Virus record (IMG/VR): IMGVR_UViG_3300043418_000226
Strand: one strand, 5' to 3'
DNA: 64,000 nucleotides
Source: a virus
Lineage: Duplodnaviria > Heunggongvirae > Uroviricota > Caudoviricetes
Shown here: positions 11,739-64,000 of the stretch, piece after piece
Numbering within the stretch: position 1 is the stretch's first letter
Layout: the number at the start of each line of letters is the position of its first letter
Translations under genes and position numbers: made by a program
Notes under the pieces: generated by a model
The model's database searches: none
What the model was told of the DNA's origin: nothing
Seen by the model: only the letters and a program-made list of their open reading frames with translations

Positions 11739-12353
11739 ATGAAGGTTCTTGAATTATTTGCCGGTAGTAGGTCCGTAGGTAAAATTGCCGAACAGTTGGG
11801 TATGGAAGTATTCTCATCTGATTTAACTCCGTTTGATGGTATCCATTACGCGGTTAGTATATTGGATTTTGATGTCACTAAAGTACCTTTCCAACCGGAC
11901 ATTATTTGGGCTTCACCACCTTGTACTGGGTTTAGTGTCGCGGCACTTGGACATCATTGGACAGGTGGTAAAGGAGCGTACATTCCAAAGACAGACACGG
12001 CTCGTTTAGGTATTGAGTTAGCTAAGAAAACAATTGAGGTCATCAATCATTTTCAACCAAAGTATTGGTTCATTGAAAATCCAAGAGGAGTTCTTCGTAA
12101 GATGGATTTCATGGAGGACTTCAAAAGAAATACCGTTACGTATTGTCAATATGGTGACGATAGAATGAAACCAACTGACATATGGACAAACAGTGAAGTA
12201 TGGGTTCCAAGACCAATGTGTAAAAATGGTTCACCATGTCACGTTGCGGCACCGAGAGGTTCTAAAACGGGAACACAAGGACGTTCAAACGCATATGAGA
12301 GAAGTAAAATTCCCGAAGACTTATGTTTTGAAATTTTAAAAAGTTGTGTGTAA
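11739..12353 (+). CDS. Short C5 DNA cytosine methyltransferase-like protein
   Basis: LELFAGS (motif I), ASPPC (IV), IENP (VI). Confidence 0.85.
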   Translation: MKVLELFAGSRSVGKIAEQLGMEVFSSDLTPFDGIHYAVSILDFDVTKVPFQPDIIWASPPCTGFSVAALGHHWTGGKGAYIPKTDTARLGIELAKKTIEVINHFQPKYWFIENPRGVLRKMDFMEDFKRNTVTYCQYGDDRMKPTDIWTNSEVWVPRPMCKNGSPCHVAAPRGSKTGTQGRSNAYERSKIPEDLCFEILKSCV

Positions 12354-12700
12354 TGAGAAGTTTTAAATTCTACAAACAAGACGATAGATGGTACGTTGAT
12401 TTACCCGAATGGGAAGGTGAACAATGGGAACTTGAAATGGTAATGGGTGCCGATACGTTTCTTGACATTTTAGCTCAAGGTGAAGATGAGGTGTATGTTA
12501 CAATGTCAACCGAACCGTTCGAAAATTGTGAGACACTTCAGTTTATAGAATTGGGTAGACTTGAGGGACCTGAACTTGGAGAAGGGTCTTGGTATTTTTT
12601 AAACGAATATCAAGGAAATAGTTTTACTTTATCGCTTTGGTTATGTCACGTGACCACCTTTGTTTTCGGGGAATACCCCAATAGAATCTATTTCAAATAA
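12353..12700 (+). CDS. Conserved hypothetical protein (DUF6717-like)
   Basis: WYVDLPEW, LEMVMGADTFLD, LWLCHVT.FVFG.YP; true start probably the ATG at 12353. Confidence 0.55.
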   Translation: MRSFKFYKQDDRWYVDLPEWEGEQWELEMVMGADTFLDILAQGEDEVYVTMSTEPFENCETLQFIELGRLEGPELGEGSWYFLNEYQGNSFTLSLWLCHVTTFVFGEYPNRIYFK

Positions 12701-29171: not shown

Positions 29172-29174
29172 ATT

Positions 29175-34083: not shown

Positions 34084-34139
34084 AAAATTTGTTTGTAAAG
34101 AAATATTCACTACATTTGTCCATCAAAAATTAGGAAACT

Positions 34140-35294: not shown

Positions 35295-35756
35295 ATGCCA
35301 TTAAAAGAAAAAATAAATGCAGATTTCATTATTGCAATGAAAGCAAAGGCCTTAGTTGTTAAGTCAGCATTGAGTAGTATCAAAGCGAAAATAACTGAAG
35401 GTGAAAAGTTAAATGGTAACACTGAACTATCTGACCAAGAAGTTCTTAAAGTCATTACCACGGCAATTAAACAACGTAAACAATCATATGATGCGTTCAT
35501 GTTGGGGAACCGTGAAGACTTGGCAATTAATGAACAAGAAGAAATGAAAGTTCTTGAGATTTATTTACCAAAACAAATGACCGAGGAAGAAATTGAATCG
35601 GCAGTTACAACAATCGTACAAGAAATGTCTGCAATCGGTCTTGTTAATCCACAAGCACTTATTGGTAAAACAATTGGTGAGTTTAATAAACAATACCAAG
35701 GTATGGCCGACATCGCCGTAGTTAAATCAATCGTAAACAATTTAATTAATCAATAA
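35295..35756 (+). CDS. GatB/YqeY domain protein
   Basis: AMKAK, KQRKQS, REDLA..E..E..YLPKQM. Confidence 0.9.
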   Translation: MPLKEKINADFIIAMKAKALVVKSALSSIKAKITEGEKLNGNTELSDQEVLKVITTAIKQRKQSYDAFMLGNREDLAINEQEEMKVLEIYLPKQMTEEEIESAVTTIVQEMSAIGLVNPQALIGKTIGEFNKQYQGMADIAVVKSIVNNLINQ

Positions 35757-35984
35757 TATGGAAACTATCGGATTACTATTGGCAATCGTAACATTACCAT
35801 TATCACTTTTCTTCACCATTGCAAACGTAACGGGAGGAAATGGATTAAATAAATTCTTTGCAAGATTATTAGGTATTGGTGGGGTTGTCCTTTCAATTAT
35901 TTACATACTAAAATATAACAATTTAATATAACTGATTGATACAAACTTTAGATTTATATCCATATATTTATAATAAAAGATATT

Positions 35985-36485
35985 ATGGAACTAGTAAGAA
36001 AAAAAGTTTGCTCAACTTGTAAAGTTGAAAAAGAAATAACCGAATTTTCAAAAGACAAAACCGAAAAAGATGGTTACACCTATAGTTGTAAAGTTTGTAG
36101 AAATAAACGATATAATGATTGGGCGAAAGAGAATAAAGACAAAGTTCGTGAAAGGAACGCTAAAAGAGCTGAAGAAAGACAAGCGTACTATCAAAGTGAA
36201 CGAGGGATAGAATCGTCGAGACGTGCTCACCTTAAGAGAAAATATAATATGACGTTAGAAGAATATGATGTCATATTAGAAAGTCAAAATGGGGTATGTG
36301 ACATTTGTAAAGAACCTGAAAGTTATGGTAGAGCATCTTTTTTGGCTGTTGACCATTGTCATAATGACGAAACAATTAGAGGGTTACTTTGTAATAATTG
36401 TAACAGGGCAATTGGTTTACTTAAAGACAACATTGAAGTTCTTGAAAACGCAGTTAAATATTTGAAAAAACATAAACAAAAATAA
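35985..36485 (+). CDS. Endonuclease VII-like HNH homing endonuclease
   Basis: CxxC pairs; Q.G.C.IC, LAVDHCH, RGLLC..CN. Confidence 0.88.
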   Translation: MELVRKKVCSTCKVEKEITEFSKDKTEKDGYTYSCKVCRNKRYNDWAKENKDKVRERNAKRAEERQAYYQSERGIESSRRAHLKRKYNMTLEEYDVILESQNGVCDICKEPESYGRASFLAVDHCHNDETIRGLLCNNCNRAIGLLKDNIEVLENAVKYLKKHKQK

Positions 36486-36488
36486 ATT

Positions 36489-48373: not shown

Positions 48374-48712
48374 ATGTTACCGTTTAAATTTTTTCAAAAT
48401 ACAGACTCATCTTCTATTTTGGATGACTATCCTGGTTGGACATGGACTGAAACAGATATGATGACCAGACGAGTTCGTCGTAATCACGAAATAGTTGATA
48501 TGAATTATTTTGCGGAGAGTTATCGTATACATGGAATTATTAATTTCTTAAGATTATTTAATCGAACCGATAGCGTTTACATATATTCAATGGAATGTAA
48601 CGGTATTAGAATTTTTCATGATAACAACGAACAAGGATGGCCATGGGATATTACCACAGAATTAATTACATTTGAGGCAATTATTATCCCAAGGGAAAGA
48701 TTTTTTCTATAA
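48374..48712 (+). CDS. FKF-tag family protein (WPWDI subfamily)
   Basis: MLPFKFFQ start. Confidence 0.7.
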   Translation: MLPFKFFQNTDSSSILDDYPGWTWTETDMMTRRVRRNHEIVDMNYFAESYRIHGIINFLRLFNRTDSVYIYSMECNGIRIFHDNNEQGWPWDITTELITFEAIIIPRERFFL

Positions 48713-48768
48713 TATTTTGTAGTTTATAAAATATTGGTTATATTTGTATAAATTTTAATACATTTCCT

Positions 48769-49767
48769 ATGTCAAGATTAGACAAACTTAAAGAATTACA
48801 TCCCGAGTTAGCTAAGGTTTCAGTGATGGATATAATCGCATCTGCCGACCCGTCTACTACATACAAATATTGTGACTTCTTAGTTAAGATGTTCAAAAGA
48901 AACTTCACCCATATCGAAAATGGTCAGGTGTTAACTTCATTTATATCGGGACAATTATTTGGTAATGAATTTGTCGAAACGTTAAACAAATTTGAAGATC
49001 ACCACAAAGCCAAGAGAATTAGGATTAAAGACATTTCTTTATATTCATCATATGATGACATTAAAGTCCAAGTTGAAGAGGCTGATGAAGTTGTTCGTAT
49101 TAAAGAACTTGAGAAAGATGCTAATAAAATCTATAACGATTCAGAATGGTTAGTTCTTATTCCTAAGACATATGAATCGGCAATGCTGTATGCTAACAAC
49201 ACAAAGTGGTGCATCACACAAAAGAGTTATTGGAATGATTATAAAAAACATACGAGGATAATTTTCGTTATCAATAAAAAAACAGATGATAAGTTTGCAA
49301 TATCAAAAAGATTTGACGATAAAGTAATCCAAGGTTGGGATGCTAGAGACATTGAGACTTCACCATTGTTATGGGATTTCAATGATAACATATGGAAAGT
49401 TCTCCGTAAAGAATTAAAGAAATCTAAAATTGAAATTCAATTGGATGAATTACCAAACGGAATGATTTTCGGAAAGTCTAATTTAATGATTCCGTACGAA
49501 GATGCAACTTTACAAGAATTAGAAAGTTTCTTTAAAAAATTCGGAGATTGTCTTGAGGAAGAATTTAAAAATAAAATTGTCACTAAAGGTAGAGAACTGA
49601 GAGAGTTAGATGAAATTGAGAAGAGGTCAATTAAAAAGTTTAGTTCATTACCAACAAAGAAAATATTAGATGAAACAGATTTATATCGTTGGATTAATAA
49701 TGGTGATTCTGATTTAAACATTGACGACATATTAAAAACCTATTTAACAGGCAAGTATTATGAGTAG
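48769..49767 (+). CDS. Conserved phage protein with YxxxTKWC motif
   Basis: MSRLDKLKE, DPS..YKY, SAMLYANNTKWCI; paralog of 44003. Confidence 0.6.
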   Translation: MSRLDKLKELHPELAKVSVMDIIASADPSTTYKYCDFLVKMFKRNFTHIENGQVLTSFISGQLFGNEFVETLNKFEDHHKAKRIRIKDISLYSSYDDIKVQVEEADEVVRIKELEKDANKIYNDSEWLVLIPKTYESAMLYANNTKWCITQKSYWNDYKKHTRIIFVINKKTDDKFAISKRFDDKVIQGWDARDIETSPLLWDFNDNIWKVLRKELKKSKIEIQLDELPNGMIFGKSNLMIPYEDATLQELESFFKKFGDCLEEEFKNKIVTKGRELRELDEIEKRSIKKFSSLPTKKILDETDLYRWINNGDSDLNIDDILKTYLTGKYYE

Positions 49768-50263
49768 AATAACGCACAGACCAGATTGGTGGAGAATAGA
49801 ATACCAACTTCTAAAAAATAAAATTATGAACGATACTCCTAAACGTTTTAAAGACTGTCAACATAAATTAGAAAGACTCCACAGTATAATACCAAAAAAC
49901 GAAACGTTTAGGGATGTTGCATTTGGTAACTTTATTGATAACACATATCGTAAAGATTCTGATTACATCAATTTTAAAAATCAACATAATAAACCGAGTG
50001 GTACCAGTTCGTTAGCGGGTTCTAATTCAATTACAACTTCATTGAATAATTCTGTGACACCAATAGATACCACAATGGGAAGTGATACTGAATCGGTTAA
50101 ACCAAAACACAAACATGGACACGTTGAGCCATATGTTTTTTCAGTTGAGCCGGTTAAAGAACCATCGAAAATTAAAAGTAACGTTAAGGGATTGGTAAAA
50201 ACAATTCTTAAACCACAAATTGATGCAGTGAATACAGTGGTAAAATTAATAACGAACAAGTAG

Positions 50264-50614
50264 GTGAAAAGATTTAAATTCTTGGAGGATAACGTCAATA
50301 GTGAATATGAAGAAGAATATTTAGGTTTTGACGTTGGGGTTGAGGAACAAAACGTATATGAATACGGTGAATACTCCGCAAGTTGGATGTGGACAAGAGA
50401 TATGATTATATCACAACCTTATGAAATTCAAACTATAAATTGTTTGGGTATCGGTGATTTCTTATCACAATTTCCAAATCACTTTATTGTAGCGATAAAT
50501 TCAATTTCATCAAATGGAGTTGAGGTAACTCGTGACATTAATCACGATAACATTTGGCCATGGGATATTCATAACGACCCATTAACAATAGAATACTTAG
50601 AATTTATACCTTAA
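50264..50614 (+). CDS. FKF-tag family protein (WPWDI subfamily)
   Basis: MKRFKFL start (GTG). Confidence 0.7.
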   Translation: MKRFKFLEDNVNSEYEEEYLGFDVGVEEQNVYEYGEYSASWMWTRDMIISQPYEIQTINCLGIGDFLSQFPNHFIVAINSISSNGVEVTRDINHDNIWPWDIHNDPLTIEYLEFIP

Positions 50615-50616
50615 TT

Positions 50617-50895
50617 ATGGTTAACAATTTTAAATTTTTTAGTAAAGTAGTTTTGATTGGACATGATGGACATAAGATATCTATCGGTCAAACTTTTTAT
50701 TCGGTCACTAAACAACGTATTGATGGTTTCTTAATGTCAACACCAAAATATCAGATTAAGGAATTGGTTATGACTGAAGAAATGTTAGAAACATTCATAC
50801 CCGACCACGCATATTATTGGTACTTTGGAAGTATAACAAACGCAGAATGGTTAATTAATATTTGGAAAAAACAAGATAGAGAAGATGGGATATAG
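50617..50895 (+). CDS. FKF-tag family protein
   Basis: MVNNFKFF start. Confidence 0.7.
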   Translation: MVNNFKFFSKVVLIGHDGHKISIGQTFYSVTKQRIDGFLMSTPKYQIKELVMTEEMLETFIPDHAYYWYFGSITNAEWLINIWKKQDREDGI

Positions 50896-51565
50896 AACTT
50901 ATGTCGGCACAATGCCAAAGAGAGAATACAATAAAATAAAATCAATGACCAAAGACCAATTGATCGAACATTACAAAATAGAACGTGATGACTTTGAAAT
51001 TGAAGAAGGTTATATAGGAATGGGTGTTTACGATTTTGGTAAACCTTTATATGAGTTTGGTAAGTATACCGAATTCGAACCACCAAAAGGTTCACAAAAA
51101 ACATTCTTCAAAAACAAAGAATTAAACAAGTATTATACAAATGACCACGACTTTGCAATCGTTACACCTGAGTTTCTTGAGTACATTATTGACAGTTACA
51201 AGAAAAGAGTTGAGGACTATTACAATAAAATGATGGTTCCGTTCTTTGGTGAAAAAGAAGATAGATACAGTAGAGATAAACCGACTGACTTTCTTAATTC
51301 AGTTAAGGTTGAATACAATTTCCCAAACAACAAATATGTGTTTGACTTCTCAAAGATTACCCAAGATGAACAAAACGCTTTGTGGGATATTATTGACCAT
51401 GTAAGAACTATGAGGTTCGAATGGGTACAGACAAAACCTTACGATTTAACTAGAGGTGATGAAGTAACAACCAGTTGGAAGTATGAGTACATCATCTTTG
51501 AATTGGTTAGAATCTATAAGACGTTTGATTGGAAGAAAAACGTTATGGTTTATTATGGATATTAA
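50885..51565 (+). CDS. Hypothetical protein
   Basis: 226 aa ORF, MGYRTY start. Confidence 0.7.
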   Translation: MGYRTYVGTMPKREYNKIKSMTKDQLIEHYKIERDDFEIEEGYIGMGVYDFGKPLYEFGKYTEFEPPKGSQKTFFKNKELNKYYTNDHDFAIVTPEFLEYIIDSYKKRVEDYYNKMMVPFFGEKEDRYSRDKPTDFLNSVKVEYNFPNNKYVFDFSKITQDEQNALWDIIDHVRTMRFEWVQTKPYDLTRGDEVTTSWKYEYIIFELVRIYKTFDWKKNVMVYYGY

Positions 51566-51972
51566 TGAAAACATTTAAATTTTTTTCTAACAATGAACCA
51601 ATACTTGAATACGATGCCTTTGGGGGTCCTTTTCAAATACAACCAAGGACTTGGATAGGGTCGAGTGCAGGTGTCCCAAAATGGATTAACGGACCAACCG
51701 GAATGATATATTATATGGAGTTCGTTGGTGTTGTTGTTGATCCCGTAAATGATAATCAAATGCCTGAGATAAGTTCCCAACTTCAAAGTAAAATGATAAC
51801 TGTTGCCACATACGGTCCACACAATTACCAAGAATTTTTAGATGCACATCGGAATCATCACATTTGGATTTATAGTGTTAACACTGAAACATCAGTATAT
51901 AACGAACATAATATCAATGACTTACCAATCGGTGAACCTGTTATGATTCGAGCACATATCGAAACAGAATAA
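51565..51972 (+). CDS. FKF-tag family protein
   Basis: MKTFKFF at ATG 51565 (TAATG overlap). Confidence 0.7.
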   Translation: MKTFKFFSNNEPILEYDAFGGPFQIQPRTWIGSSAGVPKWINGPTGMIYYMEFVGVVVDPVNDNQMPEISSQLQSKMITVATYGPHNYQEFLDAHRNHHIWIYSVNTETSVYNEHNINDLPIGEPVMIRAHIETE

Positions 51973-52029
51973 AAACTGTTAAATTATTAGGCAGGTGTGA
52001 ATTTTATTAATACATTTGACAAATAATTT

Positions 52030-52329
52030 ATGAACATGAGTTTTAAGTTTCTTAATAATAAAAAAACACATCGAATGTTAGTGCCATTTAGTTCAACTCA
52101 AATGATGATTGAAATTGATACTGACATGGGTTATGAACAGTTTGTAAATTACATGAATGAAAATGTGATTTGTGAAAGATGGTCAAGTGACCCTGCGTTT
52201 GGTATATTCACATTAAGAAGAGTAATTCGTTTAAGGTTGATGTTTCATTTTGGTAATGTTAGAACCTACGGATTAATGATTGATGGTGTCTTAACGAGAA
52301 TGTTCCGTGACGACGAAAGAGTTGAATAA
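52030..52329 (+). CDS. FKF-tag family protein
   Basis: MNMSFKFL start. Confidence 0.7.
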   Translation: MNMSFKFLNNKKTHRMLVPFSSTQMMIEIDTDMGYEQFVNYMNENVICERWSSDPAFGIFTLRRVIRLRLMFHFGNVRTYGLMIDGVLTRMFRDDERVE

Positions 52330-54983
52330 TTTTAAAATAGTAAAGATATGGTAACGAGTTTTGGAGACATATTCCTAATTGGAATGTTATCCGGGTTTTG
52401 TGTAGGGGTAACCCTTGTTGTGATTTTGTGGTCTAATTCTAAAAGTAAATAAGATGGGATTATTAGGTGCCAGAGGTTGTATGTACTGTGAGGGTGACGT
52501 GTGTACTAAAGAATGTATTGAAGATATACATTCTCCACTTCATGAGTTTACTCAAAAAAAATTAATGGGTGTACATAATCCAGTTGTTCGTGAACATATT
52601 TCCAATGGTATTCGTTATGGTTCCGAATGGGAAAGAAGTAGATTGTTCACCAAGGAAGATATGTTAAAGGCAGTTAAGTTTGGTGAACTATATCAAACAG
52701 AAGGCTCAAAGTCTTTATTTGAAAAAAGAGGAACAACTCCTTCAGAAGTATTAAACAAATGGTTGGATAGTTTTAAAAAGAAATAATGAACATCAGACAA
52801 TACAAGAAGAAGTTTGCAATCTGTAAAGATGACAACGGTAAAACCATATACAAGGGTGATATTGTAAAGATATGGATGGCCATGGAAACCAATACAGGTC
52901 ACGTATCAAGAGTCTACCACAATATGTTAGATGGTGCATTTGTATTGGGTTCACCGGCACATGCATTTATGAATGATGGTAAACAAACACATCGACCTTT
53001 ACGTGATTATTTAAATCAGAAACCAATACCCGTTCACGAATGGGGTGTTGACGAACCGACGTATCGAAAAGGATATTGTATTAAAGTTAGGTCGTTTAAT
53101 AAACCAATTAAAGGAAAGTAAGTTATGATATCAAGAGAAGAACATTTAAAACAAGTTAATCGTTTTCACGATATGTTGGAGAAGGTTGATAATGGAATTC
53201 AAGAAAAGATTAAATCTGGTGAGAACGATGGGTATGAATTATATCACAAGTACTTTATTTTGTCCGCAAAGATTTGGCCACTTGTGGATGATAATATTGA
53301 AAGAATTAAAAATAGATTAGACGATTTTGAAGAATTTAATGAGTAAACAAACCTACTTTAGAGTATGTCATAAAGATACGTTACAAGGTCTTTGGTACGC
53401 ATTTAATGGTGAGTTCACCGGACTTATCCACGACGAGTTTAGTTTCTGTACTAACACCGAATTGAAAATGGATTTCGACCCCGAGATTGTGGGTTGGGTG
53501 TCTGCAGTTGAAACGTTGGATTTACTATGGAATTGGTTTAGTAAAGAAGATGTTATTAAATTACAAGAACATGGGTGGTTCGTTCATGAATATGAGTCTG
53601 AGGATATTAAATTCTACGAAAGATTCCAACATACTGTAATCAAACAGGAAACGTCAAAACCAATATTCATTTATAGTATTGGTCCGAACAATATTCTATA
53701 TAAAACTAAAACAAGTAAAGATGAATAAACTAACTTTAGAATATTATGACTGGTTTGATATCCAAAAAGAAATCTGTAAAGAAATGGGTATTGAAGAACA
53801 ATATTTCAGAGACTACCATAAATTAATTGGTGGCGAATATAAAGACCTATGGCATATTTGGTTGGAGTATTTTGAATCCATTCCGAATAATGATACAATT
53901 GTGTTTAACGATTTGGGTGAGGAAATGTCTAGTAAAATAGAGTGGATGACGATAAAAGGTGACGATTGGGCAATTCCATTTGTGGAAGCACTTTATAGGG
54001 TTTGGGATAAATTTGATATTGGATATATAAACTATAGTTGGTAATGGAACAAATACACAGACAAATATTTTCTTATCTACCTTACAGAGTGAAGTGTGAG
54101 ATATTAAATTACAAATCAGATTACGTCGGGTTAAGATACTCAACACTGAATGGGTTCTATGATATTATCGGTGAAACTCATTTCACTTATGATGGTGGAT
54201 CTACCGGTAAATCTATCAGGGACATGAAAATAATCCTAAGACCTTTTTCCGATATAACAAAGGAGATTGAAGTTAACGGTGAGAAGTTTGTTCCGTCAGA
54301 AAAAATTGGAATTCATTTATTTGATTATGATTTTATGTACATTTACAGAAAAGAAACGAATGGAATTCCTTTTTGGGTTGTTCAGAAACTACTCGAATGG
54401 AACATTGACGTGTACGGACTAATAGAATCAGATAACGCAATTAACATCAACACATTATGAAACAGTATTTAAAATATTTTCACCCTTTAGGGTTATTGAT
54501 TGTAGTATTAGTTATGTCGGTAACTTGGGCGTTCTATGATTTATATAAAAGTAATTTAAAATTTAAATATATTGTCATCGCCAATCGAACAATGTATAAG
54601 ACTATTAAGATTGATAGTATATCAAATGGTAATGCTTATTTTAAAGATAGACACGGTGACAATACAATGGTTAGTGGTTCATATGTAATTAAAGAAATAA
54701 ATAAAGATGGTTATGAGTAAAGAAAATGTTATTTTAGTTAAAGTCGATAAGTCATGTGACATGGCGGAAGTGTGGTTAAATGACGAATGTATTATGGAGG
54801 GTAATTTTTGGGACTTCCATCCAGGTTGTCACGGTATAAATGAGTATGGTGACTTTAAAGGTTATAGTGACTTAGCAAGAGCAATCGCATTAAGTTTACA
54901 TAAAGAAGGTGAGAGTTCCAAGATTGTTAATGAAGAATATAGTTACGAATAAACCTAATTGTTATAATTTTTTTCACCATTAG

Positions 54984-55014
54984 TTTGGTATATTAAAAAT
55001 TAGTTGTATATTTG
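54984..55014 (+). promoter_or_regulatory. Bacteroidota-type promoter heading the non-coding array
   Basis: TTTG 54984-87, 19 nt, TATATTTG 55007-14. Confidence 0.75.
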
Positions 55015-55179
55015 TACAAGAATTAAAAAACTACTTGAGTAGGTGGGAATGGTCAATCAACAACCCATTGAAGTTTCAGGTAATATATATTAAACGGGAC
55101 AGGCGAGCCTAGAATATAGTAATCCGCAAGTTAATGGTTTTTTAGGGGATTGAACCGGTTTTTTACATTAGCGAAATTT

Positions 55180-55355
55180 GGTCAGGTGGCGGAAAGGTAG
55201 ACGATTCCCATCAACACACATAGGGAGATTTAGATTGTTGTGTGTGCAGATTGTAGCACGTATTATAGCGTAAGTGACTGAAACTAAGGTCGTAGTATAA
55301 TCGTAGTGTATAGGTAAAGCAATCACTCACACAGGTTCGAATCCTGTCCTGACCA
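55180..55355 (+). ncRNA. tRNA-like element 1 (176 nt, large insert)
   Basis: GGTCAGG/CCTGACC acceptor, TGGCGGAAAGGTAGACG D arm, ACAGG-TTCGAAT-CCTGT T arm. Confidence 0.75.
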
Positions 55356-55394
55356 CCGAAGGTTGGTAACTCCTATAGGAATAAAAGTTACGTT

Positions 55395-55516
55395 AGTCAG
55401 GTGGCGGAATTGGTGTACGCAATGGTATGTTAAATGAGGGATTTCTCCTAAACCGAACCCTAATTAGGGCTAACCGTTGGAGTTTAAAACTACAGGTTCG
55501 AATCCTGTCTTGACTG
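55395..55516 (+). ncRNA. tRNA-like element 2 (122 nt, insert in anticodon loop)
   Basis: AGTCAGG/CTTGACT acceptor, Leu-type D arm, ATGGT/ACCGT stem around ~46 nt, variable hairpin, T arm. Confidence 0.75.
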
Positions 55517-55962
55517 CAAAAGGTTAAACATTGAATACCTTTGTAATAACTAAAGAACGGTAATCGTGAAACCAAGTAAGGGTAGAGGTGTTCATATAAG
55601 TTTTACATAAAGATACTATCAGTAATGGTGGTTGTGTTGTTCCCTTGAGAAAGGAATAAGTAGTAGTGACAAGAATGATTGAAATAACATCATATAGTAA
55701 CCAACACAAATGAGTTCTCAGCAAGTGGTTAAAAACAGACAGGTAGATGACTCAGATACTGATTCTGATAATGTTCCGATAGTCGTCCATTTAACTACGT
55801 GACCCTACTCTTATATGGGCGTAAATATAAAGAAACAGTCATATAAGAAAGAGGGTCTAAAACAATTTACTAATGCTCGCTGTTAGGTTGAACGTGGAAT
55901 AAAAAGGGTTTATATTAAGTTCAACAAACCAGAAACCCCGAAAGACCAAGGTTAGTAAAGGA

Positions 55963-56072
55963 AGTCAGGTGGCGGAATTGGCTATCGCACCTCACCTACT
56001 ATGGGGAGTATTGTTTCGACACAATTAATCAGCTGAGCGGCAAGCATACAGGTTCGAGTCCTGTCCTGACTA
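55963..56072 (+). ncRNA. tRNA-like element 3 (110 nt, expanded variable region)
   Basis: AGTCAGG/CCTGACT; CCTCA-cctacta-TGGGG arm lacking U33 and R37; T arm. Confidence 0.75.
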
Positions 56073-56136
56073 CAAGGGTTATGAGCAACGTGCCCCATTA
56101 ATTGCACAATGTTGACTGATGGAAAGACATCAAAAC
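56073..56136 (+). repeat. 64-nt structured spacer, copy A
   Basis: 60/64 identical to 56444-56507. Confidence 0.9.
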
Positions 56137-56193
56137 AGTCAGGTGGAAAGGCGGTTTCCTTTAGGTAAGCAGGTTCGAGTCCTGTCCTGACTA
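56137..56193 (+). ncRNA. tRNA-like element 4 (57 nt, minimal)
   Basis: Acceptor and T arm with a single short hairpin between. Confidence 0.7.
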
Positions 56194-56364
56194 CAAGACG
56201 GCCTGATTCCGGTGCACAGGATAGGGAACGAAGCTCTTGAATGACGGGTCTGTTATCTTAACATTATTTGACTTCGGTTTCAATAATGGATAACAGATTG
56301 GCGCGGAGGTCAACTAAATCGTTAGTTAGGATGGTGTTACAGCGTCGAGTAGACTGTAACAAAT

Positions 56365-56443
56365 GGTCAGGTGGGTGTAATGAGGGACGGTGCCCGAATC
56401 CAGTCAAATGGTTACTTATCCGGTTCGAGTCCGGCCCTGACTA
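56365..56443 (+). ncRNA. tRNA-like element 5 (79 nt, degenerate D/anticodon arms)
   Basis: GGTCAGG/CCTGACT; CCGG-TTCGAGT-CCGG T arm. Confidence 0.65.
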
Positions 56444-56507
56444 CAAGGGTTATGAACAACGTGTCCCCTTAATTACACAATGTTGACTGATGGAAAGACA
56501 TCAAAAC
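56444..56507 (+). repeat. 64-nt structured spacer, copy B
   Basis: Direct repeat of 56073-56136. Confidence 0.9.
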
Positions 56508-56676
56508 GGTTAGGTGGCGGAATGGTAGACGCACAAAGAGTAATGTCTTTGTTTGATTCAGCTCATTACTGAATCCCTCATATCGAGGTACGTGAGAGCA
56601 ATGTAATAGTGTACATAAAATCATTGAGGCAACAGAAGTAGATGTGTTGATACAGGTTCGAATCCTGTCCTGACTA
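56508..56676 (+). ncRNA. tRNA-like element 6 (169 nt, multi-hairpin insert)
   Basis: GGTTAGG/CCTGACT, TGGCGGAATGGTAGACGC D arm, CAAAG/CTTTG stem, T arm. Confidence 0.75.
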
Positions 56677-56803
56677 CGATTGCCAACACGTATGGTCAAT
56701 GTGTTAAAATTGTCGTGTAACAAGACCCGTAAAAAAATGAGGCAACGACTGGAAGGAAAGTCCACAACTAAACCTGCTTACACTTTGGAATGTAAAGTGA
56801 ATC

Positions 56804-56894
56804 GGTTAGCTTGGATAGAAGGTCGGTTCGATTCCGATGGAAGGTATTGGTACGGGTCGCCCCCTGGAGAGAGGTTCGAATCCTCTCCTAACCA
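56804..56894 (+). ncRNA. tRNA-like element 7 (degenerate, two T-loop hairpins)
   Basis: GGTTAG/CTAACC; AGAGG-TTCGAAT-CCTCT and internal TCGG-TTCGATT-CCGA. Confidence 0.55.
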
Positions 56895-56900
56895 CAAATT

Positions 56901-56935
56901 AAAATGTCATAATGAAAATTTATGACATTTTTTTT
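56901..56935 (+). terminator. Intrinsic terminator closing the array
   Basis: AAAATGTCATAA / TTATGACATTTT plus T-tract. Confidence 0.75.
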
Positions 56936-57215
56936 GTTTTAAAGAAAATTATTTTCTACATTTGTACGATATAAATTAACTTACTCATGGATAAAACATT
57001 TAAAGAACAAATTAAAGAAGAGGTTGACTCAATATGTGAGGAACATAATTTGAAACAACCAATAATAGTTCCTGCGGCCGCTAAGATTATTATGGAATAT
57101 CGTGGTTTGGATAGAGCAATCGAATTATTCGAAGGTGCCCTTAATCAAGAATCCGATTTATTTAAACGTTCAGCGTACAGAGCAACATTAGATGTAACCT
57201 TAAAAAGGGAATAAG

Positions 57216-57443
57216 ATGAAAATAGTTAAAATTACCAACCAACATAGAAGAGATTTTACTGCGGACATGGAATGTGAATTCTGTGGAGATAAAACCAAAC
57301 TTGATTCGGGATATGATGATGATTTTTATCACAGAAATGTTATTCCTGGTATGGTTTGTAAAAAATGTAATCAATCTACATTGACCGGTGGTGGAACCAT
57401 TGGTGATGTAACAACAAAATATCCTGAAGGATTTCAAGTTTAA
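57216..57443 (+). CDS. Small zinc-finger protein
   Basis: RRDF..CEFCG..GYDD..CKKC. Confidence 0.6.
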   Translation: MKIVKITNQHRRDFTADMECEFCGDKTKLDSGYDDDFYHRNVIPGMVCKKCNQSTLTGGGTIGDVTTKYPEGFQV

Positions 57444-57735
57444 ATAAAATGGAAAGAAACGAATTCTTAGAGATGGATGGTCTTTATTGGACCAGTGAAA
57501 CACACGAATGGTTTCACGATAAGTCATCGACCCAATACGCACAAAGTGATAATGGTCTCAATAAAGATGCACTTAAAAATATCTATTGTTTCATCACACG
57601 AAATATGGAAACCGGAGAGTACGATAGAGTAATGATGGATTCGAACACCAACGAGATTATTTACGATACAAAAGTACTTGAACAACTTGTATTTGAAATT
57701 GATAAAATGAAAATTGCAAAACGATTTAACATATA

Positions 57736-57966
57736 ATGGAAAAGTTTAAGTTTAAGTTCTTCCAAAAGGAAAATGAAAACATCATATGGACAAATGCCGT
57801 CGGTGTTGATATTCCCGTTACAAGATTGAGGAACGGACACATCTATAATATTATTGGATGTTTACGAGGACAAGGAAATAGGACCATACCTGAAATGTAT
57901 AATGGAAAATCCCACGAACAATGGTTACAAATAATGAATAACGAATTGAATAGGAGACATGCGTGA
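57736..57966 (+). CDS. FKF-tag family protein
   Basis: MEKFKFKFFQK start. Confidence 0.7.
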   Translation: MEKFKFKFFQKENENIIWTNAVGVDIPVTRLRNGHIYNIIGCLRGQGNRTIPEMYNGKSHEQWLQIMNNELNRRHA

Positions 57967-58273
57967 GTTTAAATTTTTCCAAAGGGACCCATTGAGTAGG
58001 TTACAAGGTGATACTATTGCAATTTTATCACTTGGTCCCCGACATTTCAACGATTGGATATCACATACCTTTCAAAATGAAGTTGTTGAAAGGATAACCA
58101 GTAGTCGTTATTTCATCAATGGAGTTAGATATGTTAACGTAAATAGAATGTCTCAAGTTATTGGATATGTATTTACGGATTGGTATATTATTGATGACAT
58201 ATTATTAACAAGGGAACAGTCACAAATTGTGGAACGTTTAAGATTAACAACTGGAAGACATGAAACAATTTAA
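57959..58273 (+). CDS. FKF-tag family protein
   Basis: MREFKFFQR start. Confidence 0.7.
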   Translation: MREFKFFQRDPLSRLQGDTIAILSLGPRHFNDWISHTFQNEVVERITSSRYFINGVRYVNVNRMSQVIGYVFTDWYIIDDILLTREQSQIVERLRLTTGRHETI

Positions 58274-58754
58274 GTTTTTAACAATAACGACAAGACCATT
58301 ACCTGATTTTGGTGTTGATATTTCTGAACTAGGTTTACTTAGAACAAGTAATATGATTGATTTTTTGGCCGATAACGAAACGATATATGAAAACGGTGAG
58401 GATGTTTATACGTTATTTGGTAAATTACTAGATAACAGAAGAAATTTAAGATTTGAGTCGATTGTTGGTGCCGACATCAATGGGTATTATAGAATTATAT
58501 CGTTATCTGGACGTGTCGTCATGCAAATTATAATACATTCATCTTTAGATAGGGAACTCTTCACTGAACGATTTAATGAATGGCACGATAGACAATACAA
58601 TAACATCGATACAGGAATCATAACTTGGAAAGATAAATTAATGAAAATTATGGCATCGTTAGAACATTATTTTATTCACGCGAAGATTGATGAAATAGAA
58701 ATTGAGGGCCATTCTGTACCAAATCCTTTTGAAGTCGCACATGAAACAGTTTAA
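58260..58754 (+). CDS. FKF-tag family protein
   Basis: MKQFKFL start. Confidence 0.7.
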   Translation: MKQFKFLTITTRPLPDFGVDISELGLLRTSNMIDFLADNETIYENGEDVYTLFGKLLDNRRNLRFESIVGADINGYYRIISLSGRVVMQIIIHSSLDRELFTERFNEWHDRQYNNIDTGIITWKDKLMKIMASLEHYFIHAKIDEIEIEGHSVPNPFEVAHETV

Positions 58755-58965
58755 GTTTTTAAGTAAAATCAATCCACTCACAATACCTCCCGAGAATCTC
58801 GGTGAAGATTATGAATTTATTGGTGTATCTCCCGTAATGTATGAACCAATATCATTTGACCAAGTTAAATTTTTATTATATCGAAGTATAACAACAGGTG
58901 CGGTGGCGAAAGGTGAGAATATAAGTCCCCAACATGAATTATGGAATTATCATGAAGAGGTTTAA
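58741..58965 (+). CDS. FKF-tag family protein
   Basis: MKQFKFL at ATG 58741. Confidence 0.7.
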   Translation: MKQFKFLSKINPLTIPPENLGEDYEFIGVSPVMYEPISFDQVKFLLYRSITTGAVAKGENISPQHELWNYHEEV

Positions 58966-59323
58966 GTTTTTTGAGAGTGAGAGACCAGAGGAAACTATTG
59001 ACACATGTCAAATATTTTTCCCAACCATGTCAGATAACAATAGAAATAGGAATTCAATTATAGTGTGGTCACATTCTGATAATATTGAATTGGATTATGT
59101 TGTTAGGATATATCAAGGAACCATAAGAAATTTTAGAACGGATTATGGTCTTAATAGAGTAATGTACAATATAGATCGTGATAGGGGTTTATACCTACCT
59201 GAAATACCGACAGTTAACTTTATTGAGACAACTACCGATGTTTATATTAATTTTAGAGAAATACACTTTGATAGTGGAGACCAAATGGTGGATATACATT
59301 ACAGAGAATATATTAACAATTAA
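58952..59323 (+). CDS. FKF-tag family protein
   Basis: MKRFKFF at ATG 58952. Confidence 0.7.
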   Translation: MKRFKFFESERPEETIDTCQIFFPTMSDNNRNRNSIIVWSHSDNIELDYVVRIYQGTIRNFRTDYGLNRVMYNIDRDRGLYLPEIPTVNFIETTTDVYINFREIHFDSGDQMVDIHYREYINN

Positions 59324-59577
59324 AAATTAAAAAGATGAAAAAGATTTTAGTAACAGGAATCAGTATGATTGTTTTAGGAATCATATTAATGTCAGCAACT
59401 TACAAACACAAAGTAACCCTTGTCAAATCGATGACATTTGAATCCAATTCTGACAACGTGGCCGAATATATTAGACAAAGAATCAGAGAAGGTTATACCT
59501 TAACTCATTTGGAAGGAGCGAACGACGGTGAATATGATTCAACGTGGATAATTGTAATGGAGAAAAACTAAATCAAT

Positions 59578-59997
59578 ATGAAAGTAAAAATTAAAGTAGA
59601 GAAGGAAGTGACAATAAGATATTGTCAGGTCGAAGCACATGTTAGATATTGGGAAGATGCCACGGTTGATGGTGTTGAGGATGTTATGGGAGATTTGATT
59701 CCATGTAGAAAAGGTGACATATGGGCTCCCGACATTGACATTGATTCTGGTGTAATTGTGAATTGGGAACAAGGAAAAACTGCTAAGGTTCACTACAAAG
59801 TATGTGATGAAGGTTCCTATTATCTATTGGATGAGAATCACGAGAGAATTTTATCTATCGAAGAGGATTACGTTCCAAATGATTTAATACCTGGCAAGTA
59901 CAATGATTATATCATTATGGATATTGATGAGAACGGAAAGATTGAACAGTGGAAAACACCGGCAAACCTAAACGATTTCATAGGTGATGACTATTAA
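59578..59997 (+). CDS. Conserved phage hypothetical protein
   Basis: VRYWEDA, W.P.ID...G...NW, HYKVCD.G.Y, YVP, DYI. Confidence 0.6.
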   Translation: MKVKIKVEKEVTIRYCQVEAHVRYWEDATVDGVEDVMGDLIPCRKGDIWAPDIDIDSGVIVNWEQGKTAKVHYKVCDEGSYYLLDENHERILSIEEDYVPNDLIPGKYNDYIIMDIDENGKIEQWKTPANLNDFIGDDY

Positions 59998-60006
59998 ATT
60001 GAATCG

Positions 60007-60309
60007 ATGAAAGACTTTAAATTTTTAACAAATAATGGTTCAACTCCCCCAATAACTGAGGGAGTTGTTTATGCCCCATATGTTCCGGCAACATTAACCC
60101 CAACCATGGAGGAAAGAGAAGTTGTTATGACAACTCGTACCATTGAACCAATGGAAAGAGAACTACGTAGACAAATCAATCCAAACTTTTTTGGTACACT
60201 TGGATATGATATTCATAATAATTTAGATTTATTCAGACGTACGGGATTATTGGAACCATCAAATGGTAGAATATCGATTGTTGATAGGTTAATGGGTGGA
60301 TTTAGGTAA
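60007..60309 (+). CDS. FKF-tag family protein with gp23-like capsid fragment
   Basis: MKDFKFL start; GVVYAPYVP. Confidence 0.65.
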   Translation: MKDFKFLTNNGSTPPITEGVVYAPYVPATLTPTMEEREVVMTTRTIEPMERELRRQINPNFFGTLGYDIHNNLDLFRRTGLLEPSNGRISIVDRLMGGFR

Positions 60310-60856
60310 AATATTCACAAATAAGTTTGTGTGCACAATATTTTCGCCATATCTTTGGACCATAATCTAATAATAAAGGATATGAGAAGAAAAAAAGACT
60401 ACATGGATGATTGTCACAAGACAACACCGGTAACGATTACTTACAAGTTCTACAATGATACCATTACAATGAAGAGGGACGTTTACGACCTATCAATCAG
60501 GGACTTGATGGAACTTAATAGAAGTATGGTTGTCAATGTATTCGATGAACAATCATATCAAGAGAACATTTTAAGAATAGCGAGAGAAATTAATAAAAAG
60601 AAAAGTTTCGTACGTAGAGTATGGGACCGATTAGATAGATGGTAATTATGGGATCAGTAGTATTAGGAATAATTGTGTTTGGGTTAGTGGGTTATTTTTT
60701 GTTAATGTACATAGAAGGAAATTACTCTGTAAGTTCTTCTGAAATAATCAAGGAAGGTGAAGTGGTTGATAGTCAAGGTAGAATCGTTGAACGTTACTAT
60801 TACATTAAAACAACATACGAAAGCGGTAGAATTAAAATAACTAAAAAATCAGTATA

Positions 60857-61477
60857 ATGAAAAACATACACGTGTTATCAACAGAGAAACCAAGTAGATT
60901 ATTTTATAATGTAGGCGGTACATTATTATTTACAAGTTATGAAAACCATAATGGAGTAAACATCTACATTACTTCTGATGAAGAAATTAAAGAAGGAGAT
61001 TATGCTTTACAATTTCACTATGGTAAAATTTCAATAGTAAAATGTGATTCTCAAAACAAATCTGTTATCAACAATTCTTCTTTAGATTTATACGCAATAA
61101 AAATTATCCTAACAACAGACCAAGACTTAATCAAAGATGGTGTACAAACTATTGATGATGATTTCCTTGAATGGTTTGTTAAAAATCCTACTTGTGAGAG
61201 AGTTGAAGTTGAGTATAATGAATACGAAATGTTTGGAAATAAAAGTAAAAAGTGGATAGATTCTCATAATTGTTACGAAATTATCATTCCACAAGAAGAA
61301 CCGACAACATGTGAATGTGGTGCGAATACCTCTTGTCAATGTGAACCTGAAAAACCGGTAAAAGACTTAGAGTATTGGAAGAACAATGCTGAGGAAGATT
61401 ATATGACCACACCGATTAGTGTATTAAGATACATTGGTGAGTTAGAAAAAGAAGTTGAACTATTAGAAAAGAAATAA
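60857..61477 (+). CDS. Conserved Bacteroidota-phage hypothetical protein
   Basis: NIYITSDEEIKEGD, KIILTTDQDLIKDGVQ.IDD.FLEWFVKNP. Confidence 0.6.
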   Translation: MKNIHVLSTEKPSRLFYNVGGTLLFTSYENHNGVNIYITSDEEIKEGDYALQFHYGKISIVKCDSQNKSVINNSSLDLYAIKIILTTDQDLIKDGVQTIDDDFLEWFVKNPTCERVEVEYNEYEMFGNKSKKWIDSHNCYEIIIPQEEPTTCECGANTSCQCEPEKPVKDLEYWKNNAEEDYMTTPISVLRYIGELEKEVELLEKK

Positions 61478-62327
61478 GATATGAAAACCAAAAATAGTCC
61501 ACCAAGTTCGGAGTTTGAATATAAAGATAAGTGTCCTTCTTGCGGTAGTTTTTGTAATATACATATAGATTTAGACGACAATGATGAATGTAATGATTGT
61601 CGAGCAACAGAATTTAAAAAGAAATAAGATGGAAAAGATATTAGTATGTGCAATATTTCAGTTGGTACTTTTCATACCCTTTTATCTAATTTGGAGAAAT
61701 GACTGTAAAAAAATAGGTAAAGACAATTTAGCTGTAAGTTTATCAGAAAGGTTTTTATACTGGTTACTTTTTTGTCCAATTTGGTTAGTAGGGGTTTTGG
61801 GTTGATTATTACACAAAAGATTTTGAACAATTAAAAAAGAATAAGATGAAACTATACAAACACGAGGGAAAAGGATTCTACATTGGTAGTTGTGTTATTG
61901 TAATGGCTGAGTCAATTGAAATGGCAACCATATTGATTGATAATGAATTGCATTCAATGGGATTATCTGATGAAACAATTAACATTGTGGAATTGGATGT
62001 AAGAGACGGGATTGTATATTCACATAACGGAGATTACTAAAATGAAACAAGGAGATAAAGTTGTTTGTATAAGTGAAGATTTCCCACAATGGAAAACCAC
62101 GGACGAAGATAAGACAAAAAATGGTACCCAACCAAATAATCACCCAATGAAAGGTGAAGTTCTAACCGTGGATGAAGTTCTTGGTGAGTTTATCAGATTC
62201 GATAGATATGATAATGATTTTCATAACTGGTGGAAGAGTGATAGATTTAGAAAGGTGGACCTACAGGAACTAATGAATGGTGAAAAGAAGACTGCGGACT
62301 TATATCAGAAACTAATTGATGAATTGA

Positions 62328-62759
62328 ATGAAAGACTTTAAATTTTTTCAGAAAGAGAAGAGACTGATGTTTTCCGGGTTAATTGAAAGTTTACGAACTG
62401 ACAATGGTGCCATTGATTTAACAACAAGAGGGACCGTTCGGGACTATTATAGAAATCAAATTGAGGGTACTTTTTACCCAAATGAAAATAATGAAATTGA
62501 CGATCAGGTTATTCGGATGGTGGATGAATATTTTAATGATAATCAAGGTATAGCCATACAAACTGAATTCCTACGGATGGAGATAACAAGTCATGAGATT
62601 AATAACAATTATCTTTACGATTCATTTGTTGATAATACTCACTTGATAAATGTCGATGTTCGAGTTAGAAACTCTCCCTACGGTCCAATCCAATATCTTC
62701 TCACTAAAAATGAGGGTGGATTCATTTACATTACAGAAAAAAGAATAGAAAGCCGATGA
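62328..62759 (+). CDS. FKF-tag family protein
   Basis: MKDFKFFQK start. Confidence 0.7.
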   Translation: MKDFKFFQKEKRLMFSGLIESLRTDNGAIDLTTRGTVRDYYRNQIEGTFYPNENNEIDDQVIRMVDEYFNDNQGIAIQTEFLRMEITSHEINNNYLYDSFVDNTHLINVDVRVRNSPYGPIQYLLTKNEGGFIYITEKRIESR

Positions 62760-63064
62760 TAGATTTTAAATTTTTTCAGAAAGATATTGAATCTTTACCA
62801 CATTTTCATCCGGATATGTTATTTAGATATCATTATCTTATTGACCGAGTATACACGGACAGGTTTGAAAATGAGGTACATGATATTGATAATATGAACA
62901 TATTTGATGACATATTTACCATGATTGAACGTGGTGAATTGGCTTCATTTAATTCTATAAGGGGATATATCGAACAAAGATACTATACCATAACCGGTAT
63001 TTTCATTTCCATTACGGATGAAAAACACAACCAATTAATGTACCAATCAACTTATTTAACATAA
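62756..63064 (+). CDS. FKF-tag family protein
   Basis: MIDFKFFQK start. Confidence 0.7.
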   Translation: MIDFKFFQKDIESLPHFHPDMLFRYHYLIDRVYTDRFENEVHDIDNMNIFDDIFTMIERGELASFNSIRGYIEQRYYTITGIFISITDEKHNQLMYQSTYLT

Positions 63065-63066
63065 GA

Positions 63067-63381
63067 ATGAAAGACTTTAAATTTTTCAGTAAAGATAAGG
63101 AAATTCCAATATATATTCGAAGATTACATGCGTTTAATTCTAAATTGGCTGAGTTGTATCATATGCGTACCAATTTCCCATATGATAGTAATGAGTTTGG
63201 AATAACGGTTTCCATTTGTGACAATGTAAACCGAGCCATTAATTCGGGACATGCGACTCGATACCAAGAGATATCGTGGTTTTATCACGCCAAGTTCCTT
63301 AATGAATTCAGTGTAGATTACCAACCAACAAGAGAGATAGTTGATTTAATAATAAATCAGGTAGAGAATGAAATCGTTTAA
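63067..63381 (+). CDS. FKF-tag family protein
   Basis: MKDFKFF start. Confidence 0.7.
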   Translation: MKDFKFFSKDKEIPIYIRRLHAFNSKLAELYHMRTNFPYDSNEFGITVSICDNVNRAINSGHATRYQEISWFYHAKFLNEFSVDYQPTREIVDLIINQVENEIV

Positions 63382-63607
63382 GTTTTTACGGAGTTCAACA
63401 ATTAGACGCGTAGACGTTCATGTCCATGGTTTACACATTGAAATACTGACGGATCTTCCAATGTATCAAATACGGACAATAATGTTTAATATACTTGACC
63501 CATTCCTATTCCAACCTTATCATATTATCAATAAAAATAGGGTACAACATATGTTAAATGAGAGATTCAATGGTAACGCAAATATAGTAGGGGATGAAAT
63601 CGTTTAA
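63368..63607 (+). CDS. FKF-tag family protein
   Basis: MKSFKFL start. Confidence 0.7.
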   Translation: MKSFKFLRSSTIRRVDVHVHGLHIEILTDLPMYQIRTIMFNILDPFLFQPYHIINKNRVQHMLNERFNGNANIVGDEIV

Positions 63608-64000
63608 GTTTTTTCAGAAAGAGGCGGTATCAATTAGTTTACCCACAGCAATGAGGGTGGAAGCAAGAACCATTGCTGGTGAACTTATGGCAGTTGAACC
63701 GGTGAGTCCACCATCAACCCCTGATTTTTGTCTTAGGGTATATAATGATAAAATCTTTACCAAATATAGTGATTATTATAATTTTCCCTTAGATAGTGAA
63801 GAACATTCACGAATGGTGTCCATATATGAAACCGCAAATGAATTCATTCATAACCGACATATTGTTAACTACGATGCATTAAGGAATTTTTACTACATAA
63901 ATTACGAAGATTTCCATAATACACCTAACGTTCCTCACCATTTGATGGAATATGTCATAACGGATGATGTTCACGATAGGATGATTGAAAACACGGAACG
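63594..64000 (+). CDS. FKF-tag family protein with Gol-like capsid peptide (3' truncated, not in ORF track)
   Basis: Open frame from ATG 63594 to the window end: MKSFKFFQKEAVSISLPTAMRVEARTIAGELMAVEPVSPPS... Confidence 0.7.
   Translation, partial: MKSFKFFQKEAVSISLPTAMRVEARTIAGELMAVEPVSPPSTPDFCLRVYNDKIFTKYSDYYNFPLDSEEHSRMVSIYETANEFIHNRHIVNYDALRNFYYINYEDFHNTPNVPHHLMEYVITDDVHDRMIENTE

Follow-up and report, generated by a model that had tools for sequence, protein, structure and literature searches.

The window analysed here is a 64,000-nucleotide (nt) stretch of Caudoviricetes DNA (IMG/VR record IMGVR_UViG_3300043418_000226), and the subject of this report is a short N-terminal peptide shared by sixteen of its small proteins. 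All sixteen are encoded on the + strand within positions 48374-64000, by open reading frames (ORFs) that open with M-x(2-3)-F-K-F-[F/L], range in length from 74 to 164 amino acids (aa), and make up about one in eight of the window genes. An earlier note on this DNA, made from its letters alone, had claimed these sixteen starts, and each of them was recovered in our ORF scan; the shared N-terminal tag, hereafter FKF[FL], is confirmed. The tagged ORFs are listed below, with the first residues of each protein in brackets.

48374..48712, + strand: tagged ORF, 112 aa (MLPFKFF); no lysine after the tag; predicted beta-rich body; family of at least 45 representatives
50264..50614, + strand: tagged ORF, 116 aa, GTG start (MKRFKFL); paralog of 48374; body without lysine
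50617..50895, + strand: tagged ORF, 92 aa (MVNNFKFF); an exception with normal lysine (7.5%), likewise in relatives
51565..51972, + strand: tagged ORF, 135 aa (MKTFKFF)
52030..52329, + strand: tagged ORF, 99 aa (MNMSFKFL); body without lysine
57736..57966, + strand: tagged ORF, 76 aa (MEKFKFKFF)
57959..58273, + strand: tagged ORF, 104 aa (MREFKFF); body without lysine; stop within TTTAAG of the next gene
58260..58754, + strand: tagged ORF, 164 aa (MKQFKFL); 14-nt overlaps at either side
58741..58965, + strand: tagged ORF, 74 aa (MKQFKFL)
58952..59323, + strand: tagged ORF, 123 aa (MKRFKFF); body without lysine
60007..60309, + strand: tagged ORF, 100 aa (MKDFKFL); residues 5-65 resemble the C-terminus of a T4-type capsid protein, Gp23, of the related genome G001
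62328..62759, + strand: tagged ORF, 143 aa (MKDFKFFQKE)
62756..63064, + strand: tagged ORF, 102 aa (MIDFKFFQKD)
63067..63381, + strand: tagged ORF, 104 aa (MKDFKFFSKD); modelled at low confidence as four helices, residues 1-12 being unstructured
63368..63607, + strand: tagged ORF, 79 aa (MKSFKFL)
63594..64000, + strand: tagged ORF, more than 135 aa (MKSFKFFQKE); paralog of 63067; leaves the window

The tagged genes are evidently real, since 48374 and its ortholog from another sample show a ratio of nonsynonymous to synonymous substitution rates (dN/dS) of 0.14 at a dS of 0.37. The GTG start of 50264, which lies immediately 3′ of the preceding stop, is supported by the presence of the tag in its relatives from other phages, and 63594 is open at the window edge. 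The doubled FKFKFF described at 57736 is indeed present. Chance occurrence can be dismissed: the strict DNA form of the tagged start, ATGAAANNNTTTAARTTTTT, occurs 8 times in the window as compared with 0.00 times in 100 shuffles, and if the 111 untagged ORFs are taken as the source of N-terminal residue frequencies, only about 0.02 tagged ORFs are predicted among 127. The shuffles and the untagged N-termini together exclude the AT-rich bias near gene starts which, as that note had pointed out, might have accounted for the motif.

The only other start-proximal match in the window, MRSFKFY at 12353, is also the single near-match that had been noticed in the first 48 kb.

12353..12700, + strand: DUF6717 protein (MRSFKFY); relation to the tag doubtful, not counted as a member

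This ORF matches DUF6717 (PF20475, E 7e-34), a family that is also found in Cellulophaga phages and in Sphingomonas phage PAU and has a tag-like N-terminus, M-[RK]-x-[FY]-[KR]-F-Y-[KR]-[DE], in which K and R swap freely. We excluded it as a seventeenth member, its start being a family trait with interchangeable K and R, and its lysine content being moderate.

Relatives of the window were sought with a pattern scan of IMG/VR followed by an ORF scan of the contigs, which revealed tag arrays in at least 13 contigs (L088, L046, L079, L089, L118, L179, L188, L190, L191, L199, L204, L208 and L212), at densities of as many as 16 tagged ORFs per 10 kb. L088 is part of G001, a genome of 335,630 bp rated complete, and L046 lies in G002, of 323,865 bp. 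G001 is syntenic with the window, which corresponds to its 307-335 kb and 1-18 kb regions, and 27 of the 127 window proteins have a match in it; about 20 tagged ORFs are located at the matching place, 3.7-17.5 kb, with strays at 303, 323 and 335 kb, and G002 carries at least 5. Two G001 ORFs, at 8577-9044 and 322996-323403, end in FKFFRG or FKFLSGGK, directly ahead of the tagged gene that follows, and these C-terminal tag-like ends are probably remnants of decayed tagged genes that were fused in frame. No tag arrays were present in the four Bacteroidota-linked phage records checked (three cultured, one uncultured), a blastn search of INPHARED with window positions 57000-64000 gave no match, and neither did an IMG/VR search with the 332-aa array protein 48769. 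The literature that we searched yielded no description of the FKF[FL] tag.

The head genes of G001 include a T4-type Gp23 (E 2e-72) as well as an S77 prohead protease and a T4 portal, and the tag-bearing clade consists of uncultured T4-like phages, probably of Bacteroidota, with genomes of roughly 300 kb. Among cultured phages, those of Bacteroides, Chryseobacterium, Flavobacterium and Cellulophaga provide the best matches to window proteins. The motif TTTG-N-TAnnTTTG, which we take to be the Bacteroidota promoter consensus, occurs at 20 sites versus 7.2 expected, 17 of them on the coding strand and mostly in intergenic positions, and one heads the operon 56987-59323, which contains five tagged genes. 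Three of the sites are listed here.

48716..48746, + strand: promoter-like site, TTTG-N-TAnnTTTG, in the gap 3′ of the first tagged gene
56933..56964, + strand: promoter-like site, Bacteroidota type (TTTG-N-TAnnTTTG), ahead of the operon 56987-59323
60326..60357, + strand: promoter-like site, TTTG-N-TAnnTTTG, ahead of 60382

The phage matches and the promoter motif together indicate that the host is probably a member of Bacteroidota, and that the tagged genes are probably read by the host polymerase and hence expressed early.

The synonymous variation in tag codons had been taken as a sign of selection at the peptide level, and a larger sample upholds this. The window and five related loci contain 46 ORF starts with at most two mismatches to TTTAAATTTTTT, and 34 of the 40 mismatches are at the 4 wobble positions, while 2 more are TTN-to-CTT changes that retain leucine. 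Within the window, the tag lysine is encoded by AAA 9 times and by AAG 7 times, and the fourth residue by TTT, TTC, TTA, TTG or CTT; the relatives use combinations such as TTT-AAG-TTC-CTA and TTC-AAA-TTT-CTT. Since the mismatches concentrate on wobble sites and the relatives recode the tag, selection acts on the peptide and not on the DNA. An additional constraint, at the nucleotide level, operates at 6 of 16 junctions, where the TAA stop of the upstream gene is embedded as T-TA-A in the tag codons TTT-AAR; the resulting 14-nt overlap forces TTT at the first phenylalanine, and the upstream proteins thus end in -ETI, -ETV, -EEV or -EIV. Runs of exact 14-nt overlaps are seen at 57959-58965 and 62042-63607, and likewise in G001 (-NETI). 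We read the stop-in-tag overlap as a by-product of tight gene packing.

The bodies that follow the tag are mostly unrelated, in line with the earlier description. With the tag removed, blastp links only two paralog pairs among the sixteen proteins, 48374 with 50264 and 63067 with 63594 (E about 1e-6); Pfam contains no family for any of them, and PHROGs gave nothing useful. Similarly, blastp sorts 59 tagged proteins, drawn from six sources, into 34 clusters, of which 22 are singletons, while their tag columns are nearly invariant: F in 59/59, K in 58/59, F in 58/59, and then F in 40 or L in 19, with K or R two residues ahead of the first phenylalanine in 42. The residues after the tag vary by phage, with Q-K in the window and x-G in relatives. 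Deep conservation was examined in one family, that of 48374, for which a profile collected 53 representatives less than 50% identical to each other, 46 of them tagged. In an alignment of 45 of these, F4 is conserved at 100%, K5 at 91% and F6 at 87%, which equals the conservation of the invariant core residues, whereas at linker positions 8-20 the top residue averages 33%. The proteins are therefore laid out as tag, free linker and conserved domain, the linker being rich in proline, serine, threonine and acidic residues. The proposed modular address label is borne out with regard to this layout and to the many unrelated bodies; no partner was found, and a role as cargo is conjectural.

Structure prediction gave a beta-rich model for 48374, with a predicted local distance difference test score (pLDDT) of 63, and a four-helical model for 63067 (pLDDT 56), both of low confidence. 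The first 12-19 residues are unstructured in both, and the best reading of the models would place the tag on a free, flexible N-terminal tail. A Foldseek search of PDB with the 48374 model produced no match at E <= 0.001, and ESM Atlas look-alikes of 58260 and 62328 provided no usable lead. A weak match of P0174, a repeat protein of 445 aa, to the 48374 profile (E 3e-4) is probably spurious and was not used. One body has a recognizable origin: in 60007, the stretch from residue 5 to 65 matches the C-terminal 60 residues of Gp23, the capsid protein of G001 (E 2e-6). As this body derives from a capsid gene fragment, tags can evidently be joined to foreign bodies. All six lysines of the capsid segment that lie outside the tag have been lost in 60007, with KK changed into RR. 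If the host has a sensor for the T4-type major capsid protein, 60007 could act as its decoy.

The loss of lysine seen in 60007 is widespread, and is the most informative feature of the tagged proteins; the earlier note, which was right about the tag, did not include it. After residue 12, the sixteen proteins contain 24 lysines in 1566 residues (1.5%), as opposed to 8.7% in the 111 untagged window ORFs (Fisher 6e-32, Mann-Whitney 2.5e-9), while arginine amounts to 6.8% in tagged bodies versus 4.0% in untagged ORFs, and histidine is doubled. The depletion is not regional, because lysine stands at 9.3% (and arginine at 3.8%) in the 22 untagged ORFs that lie among the tagged ones within these 16 kb. 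It is not an effect of DNA composition either, since in-frame lysine codons in tagged ORFs are reduced to 0.18 of the untagged level, and out-of-frame AAA/AAG triplets fall far less, to 0.64 and 0.84. The G001 array shows the same difference (2.1% lysine in tagged versus 9.6% in untagged proteins), and tagged bodies in other related contigs have 1.4-4.0% lysine. In contrast, the first 12 residues of tagged proteins contain 20% lysine, and the lysine of the tag itself is retained in 58/59 proteins, against the general trend of replacing lysine with arginine. To our knowledge, bacteria and the viruses that infect them rarely show such a coupled loss of lysine. An untagged 64-aa ORF at 61846-62040 (MKLYKHEGKGFY...), located just upstream of tagged genes, also has no lysine after residue 12.

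The explanation that we prefer, tentatively, is that FKF[FL] serves as a handle at the N-terminus and that all tagged proteins share one reader, which works on the side chains of lysine; this explanation may well be correct, although we would stop short of calling it probable. According to this explanation, the phage clade attaches a short linear peptide at residues 3-7, kept under protein-level selection, to dozens of unrelated small proteins, which would be expressed from host-type promoters and probably early. A single reader would recognize the tag, and either the reader or the destination of the tagged proteins would act chemically on lysine, by covalent modification or ligation at one or more lysines of the tail, or by a lysine-specific proteolytic cut. 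Lysine-directed chemistry is suggested because lysine is kept in tag and tail and purged from the body: the bodies would have shed their lysines, with arginine and histidine taking their place, and the action would thereby be confined to the tail. A more far-reaching version, in which the tag is the handle of a hitherto undescribed lysine-directed processing system of phage infection that targets the tail lysine of many effectors, is conceivable but somewhat doubtful; such a system could act by covalent tethering, modification or lysine-specific maturation, and the effectors would evolve lysine-free bodies in response.

Several observations weigh against a lysine-directed reader. The 50617 family is tagged and yet has normal lysine, and the rare variants FRFF, FNFL, FIFL and FDFF occur in otherwise typical lysine-poor members, so that the tag lysine is not absolutely required. 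The depletion of lysine could serve a purpose unrelated to the tag reader, and both structure models, with pLDDT of 63 and 56, are low-confidence. Furthermore, no reader was identified among the candidate families sought in the complete relatives G001 and G002: neither genome contains a ThiF-type E1, a Prok-JAB protein, a transglutaminase core or an ATP-grasp_4 domain, and ClpS, the adaptor for an N-degron with an exposed N-terminal F/L/W/Y, and Prp (PF04327) are missing from both as well as from a Bacteroides control (Bacteroides thetaiotaomicron in the case of ClpS). For Prp, the profile gave positive controls only in Bacillus, Thermotoga and Lactococcus.

Individual candidates were also considered. 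An M42 aminopeptidase (window 4104-5183) was dropped as a potential reader, having no G001 homolog, and a conserved lysine-poor protein of 218 aa at 17281 turned out to be a metallophosphoesterase that has no apparent connection with the tag. The G001 homolog of an ATP-grasp-like candidate had no Pfam or PDB match. Radical SAM genes number 3 in G001 and 9 in G002, and none scored above the cut-off in three cultured Bacteroidota phages without tags; they lie more than 200 kb from the arrays in G001 and at least 17 kb from them in G002. G001 also encodes 2OG oxygenases, an Asp/Asn-hydroxylase-like protein and a TibC-like glycosyltransferase, and its 280-300 kb region (L163) combines Asp/Asn-hydroxylase-like, 2OG-Fe(II) oxygenase, radical SAM, TibC-like GT9 and GT4-FkbM enzymes. 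In G001 these tailoring genes adjoin genes for fibre-like proteins and for glycosyltransferases, and tailoring genes do not adjoin the arrays in either G001 or G002. Fibre-like proteins of 890-1630 aa encoded at 226-245 kb of G001 contain about 1% lysine and about 1% arginine.

The nearest parallel in logic to the FKF[FL] tag is, by analogy, the short N-terminal capsid-targeting sequence carried by phage T4's internal proteins (Rao and Black 2010, PMC3012670), in that both are short conserved N-terminal peptides on diverse, fast-evolving small proteins of phages with T4-type heads. The tag could accordingly be pictured as a non-covalent label for prohead loading, with the tagged proteins docking on the scaffold core, being packaged and then injected along with the DNA, and the T4-type head genes of the clade as well as the layout of tag, linker and variable body are consistent with such a role. 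The tag sequence, however, is different, and is not followed by a prohead-protease site (L/I)-x-E, since [LI]xE turns up between residues 5 and 25 in 31% of tagged ORFs as against 23% of untagged ones and is thus not enriched. There are also 16-20 or more tagged proteins per genome; the proteins of the G001 head cluster are untagged and about 110 kb away from the tagged genes, which reside in operons with host-type promoters. Moreover, T4 internal proteins are basic, in contrast to the mostly acidic to near-neutral, lysine-poor and arginine-rich tagged bodies, and prohead loading leaves the lysine depletion unexplained. The T4 analogy put forward in the earlier note therefore fails where it is testable, and a prohead label is unlikely. 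The cluster K-x-F-K-F-F-x-K is both basic and aromatic, like the synthetic carrier peptide (KFF)3K, which contains the same repeat, is membrane-active and is used with antisense peptide nucleic acids, and its strict N-terminal position would suit threading or co-translational capture. On these grounds the tag might be a membrane anchor binding acidic lipid, or a signal for hand-off to a protease (ClpX, Lon, FtsH) or chaperone (trigger factor, DnaK), either of which would set the location or half-life of early proteins. We consider this quite unlikely: the motif, with F in 59/59 and K in 58/59, is too strict for a generic amphipathic or chaperone signal, no hydrophobic segment comes after it, ClpS is absent from the relatives and the Bacteroides control, and the replacement of lysine by arginine is not explained by any such route. 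Polar or acidic linkers directly after FKF[FL] also distinguish the tagged N-termini from Sec, Tat and lipoprotein signals, in which a basic N-region leads into a hydrophobic core of at least 7 residues, with an RR motif or a lipobox Cys as further marks; no such signal was recognized.

A purely translational role, whereby the nascent peptide or the A/U-rich first codons boost initiation or re-initiation without a Shine-Dalgarno sequence and the scarcity of lysine codons spares lysine transfer RNA (tRNA-Lys), would fit the tight coupling of the genes, with the upstream TAA inside TTT-AAR at 6 of 16 junctions. TTT also makes up 88% of the phenylalanine codons among the first 12 codons of tagged ORFs, as compared with 61% in the bodies and 75% in the first 12 codons of untagged ones, and genes for RNA repair abound in the window (Thg1, a CCA-adding enzyme, RNA ligase and, twice, HAD_SAK_2). 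It is nevertheless improbable, as there is free variation at wobble sites but not in the amino acids, TTC, CTN and AAG occur in relatives, and the tag itself has 1-4 lysine codons; economy of tRNA-Lys in particular is rejected by the normal lysine content of untagged ORFs interleaved in the same stretch, and out-of-frame AAR triplets are much less depleted than in-frame lysine codons. A slim prospect is that the tag acts as a leader for a tailoring enzyme (radical SAM, 2OG oxygenase or ligase), in the manner of ribosomally synthesized and post-translationally modified peptides, where one conserved leader directs one enzyme to many variable cores; this would be a special case of the lysine-directed handle. 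The logic of one N-terminal recognition peptide on many variable bodies is the same, and both the distribution of radical SAM genes and the G001 cluster of Asp/Asn-hydroxylase-like protein, 2OG-Fe(II) oxygenase and TibC-like protein glycosyltransferase speak in its favor. Unlike such leaders and cores, though, the tag has only about 7 residues and the bodies are folded proteins of 70-165 aa; no linked tailoring enzyme was found, the enzyme genes being adjacent to fibre and glycosylation genes and not to the arrays, and enzyme number does not so far track tags (about 20 in G001 with its 3 radical SAM genes, at least 5 in G002 with its 9). Finally, the tag may have no shared function, and either descend as a relic from a common ancestor or result from the shuffling of cassettes at a conserved gene start. 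Tandem arrays with some paralogous members, a 20-nt start sequence that could support recombination, and the two G001 ORFs ending in tag-like remnants are in line with this, but a relic should not be conserved like core residues, next to a free linker, in 45 representatives less than 50% identical. Its maintenance at the peptide level, the strong composition signature that accompanies it, and the tagged body made from a capsid gene fragment make this origin very improbable.

Two further systems offer a comparison. In staphylococcal phage 80alpha, the capsid and scaffold proteins have the Prp motif in common with ribosomal protein L27 (PMC5744158); like FKF[FL], it is an N-terminal motif with a Phe-Phe end on non-homologous proteins, and it is read by one host protease. 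The Prp motif, however, is longer, is cut between F and A, and is carried by structural proteins rather than by arrays of small ones, and Prp itself is absent from G001, G002 and the Bacteroides control. Lysine deserts are described (PMC10665810, PMC10169902, PMC13696103) for proteins of the ubiquitin and pupylation systems and for the catalytic chains of toxins, and these cases combine long lysine-free stretches, as in the tagged proteins, with exposure to lysine-directed conjugation. The lost lysines of FKF[FL] proteins are offset by extra arginine, and their bodies show the strong depletion of lysine with retention of arginine that marks such a desert. They differ from the ubiquitin and Pup deserts in that G001 and G002 yielded no machinery for conjugation of the ubiquitin-like or Pup-like kind, and from the known deserts in general in that theirs is coupled to a lysine-bearing N-terminal tag.

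If true, a lysine-directed system would represent the counterpart, in a bacterial virus, of the “degron plus lysine desert” logic. What is new here is the contrast with untagged neighbours belonging to the same operons, the capsid-fragment case, the profile of 45 representatives, the promoter evidence, and the search for six reader families, which was made without success. Tags at the ends of unrelated proteins route those proteins, and the known cases have exposed machinery such as the Sec system, the T4 head core and Prp. Identification of the reader would probably show how a large set of abundant, uncultured phages deals with its early or host-directed proteins, and the coupled loss of lysine is a concrete chemical hint about it. 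The tag could also serve as a tool for protein delivery or handling in Bacteroidota.

The window contains some further features. Within the array region, about 2 kb at 54953-56986 are free of ORFs and higher in GC, and harbor several tRNA-like units with very long inserts, which share acceptor stems (RGTYAGG...CCTGACY) and T arms. Two of the units (110 and 122 nt) are scored as tRNA by Rfam; ARAGORN finds none by default and three if introns are allowed. A Bacteroidota-type promoter motif is located at 54984 in the same stretch. Positions 13210-13755 and 22000-36500 hold a dense set of genes for repair or salvage of RNA and nicotinamide adenine dinucleotide (NAD), including HAD_SAK_2 (twice), a Thg1-like protein, a CCA-adding enzyme (PolyA_pol), an RNA ligase with a PHA02142 OB-fold domain, a 2H/Acb1-like phosphoesterase, NADAR, NAMPT and a PRPP-synthetase-like protein, and this set suggests a phage prepared for attacks on its tRNAs and on NAD. 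An ORF for a NUMOD1/I-HmuI-like endonuclease is found between 1 and 22 kb, and a GIY-YIG ORF at 22083. Two adjacent ORFs at 2184-3921 each match thymidylate synthase, and may represent a split or invaded gene.

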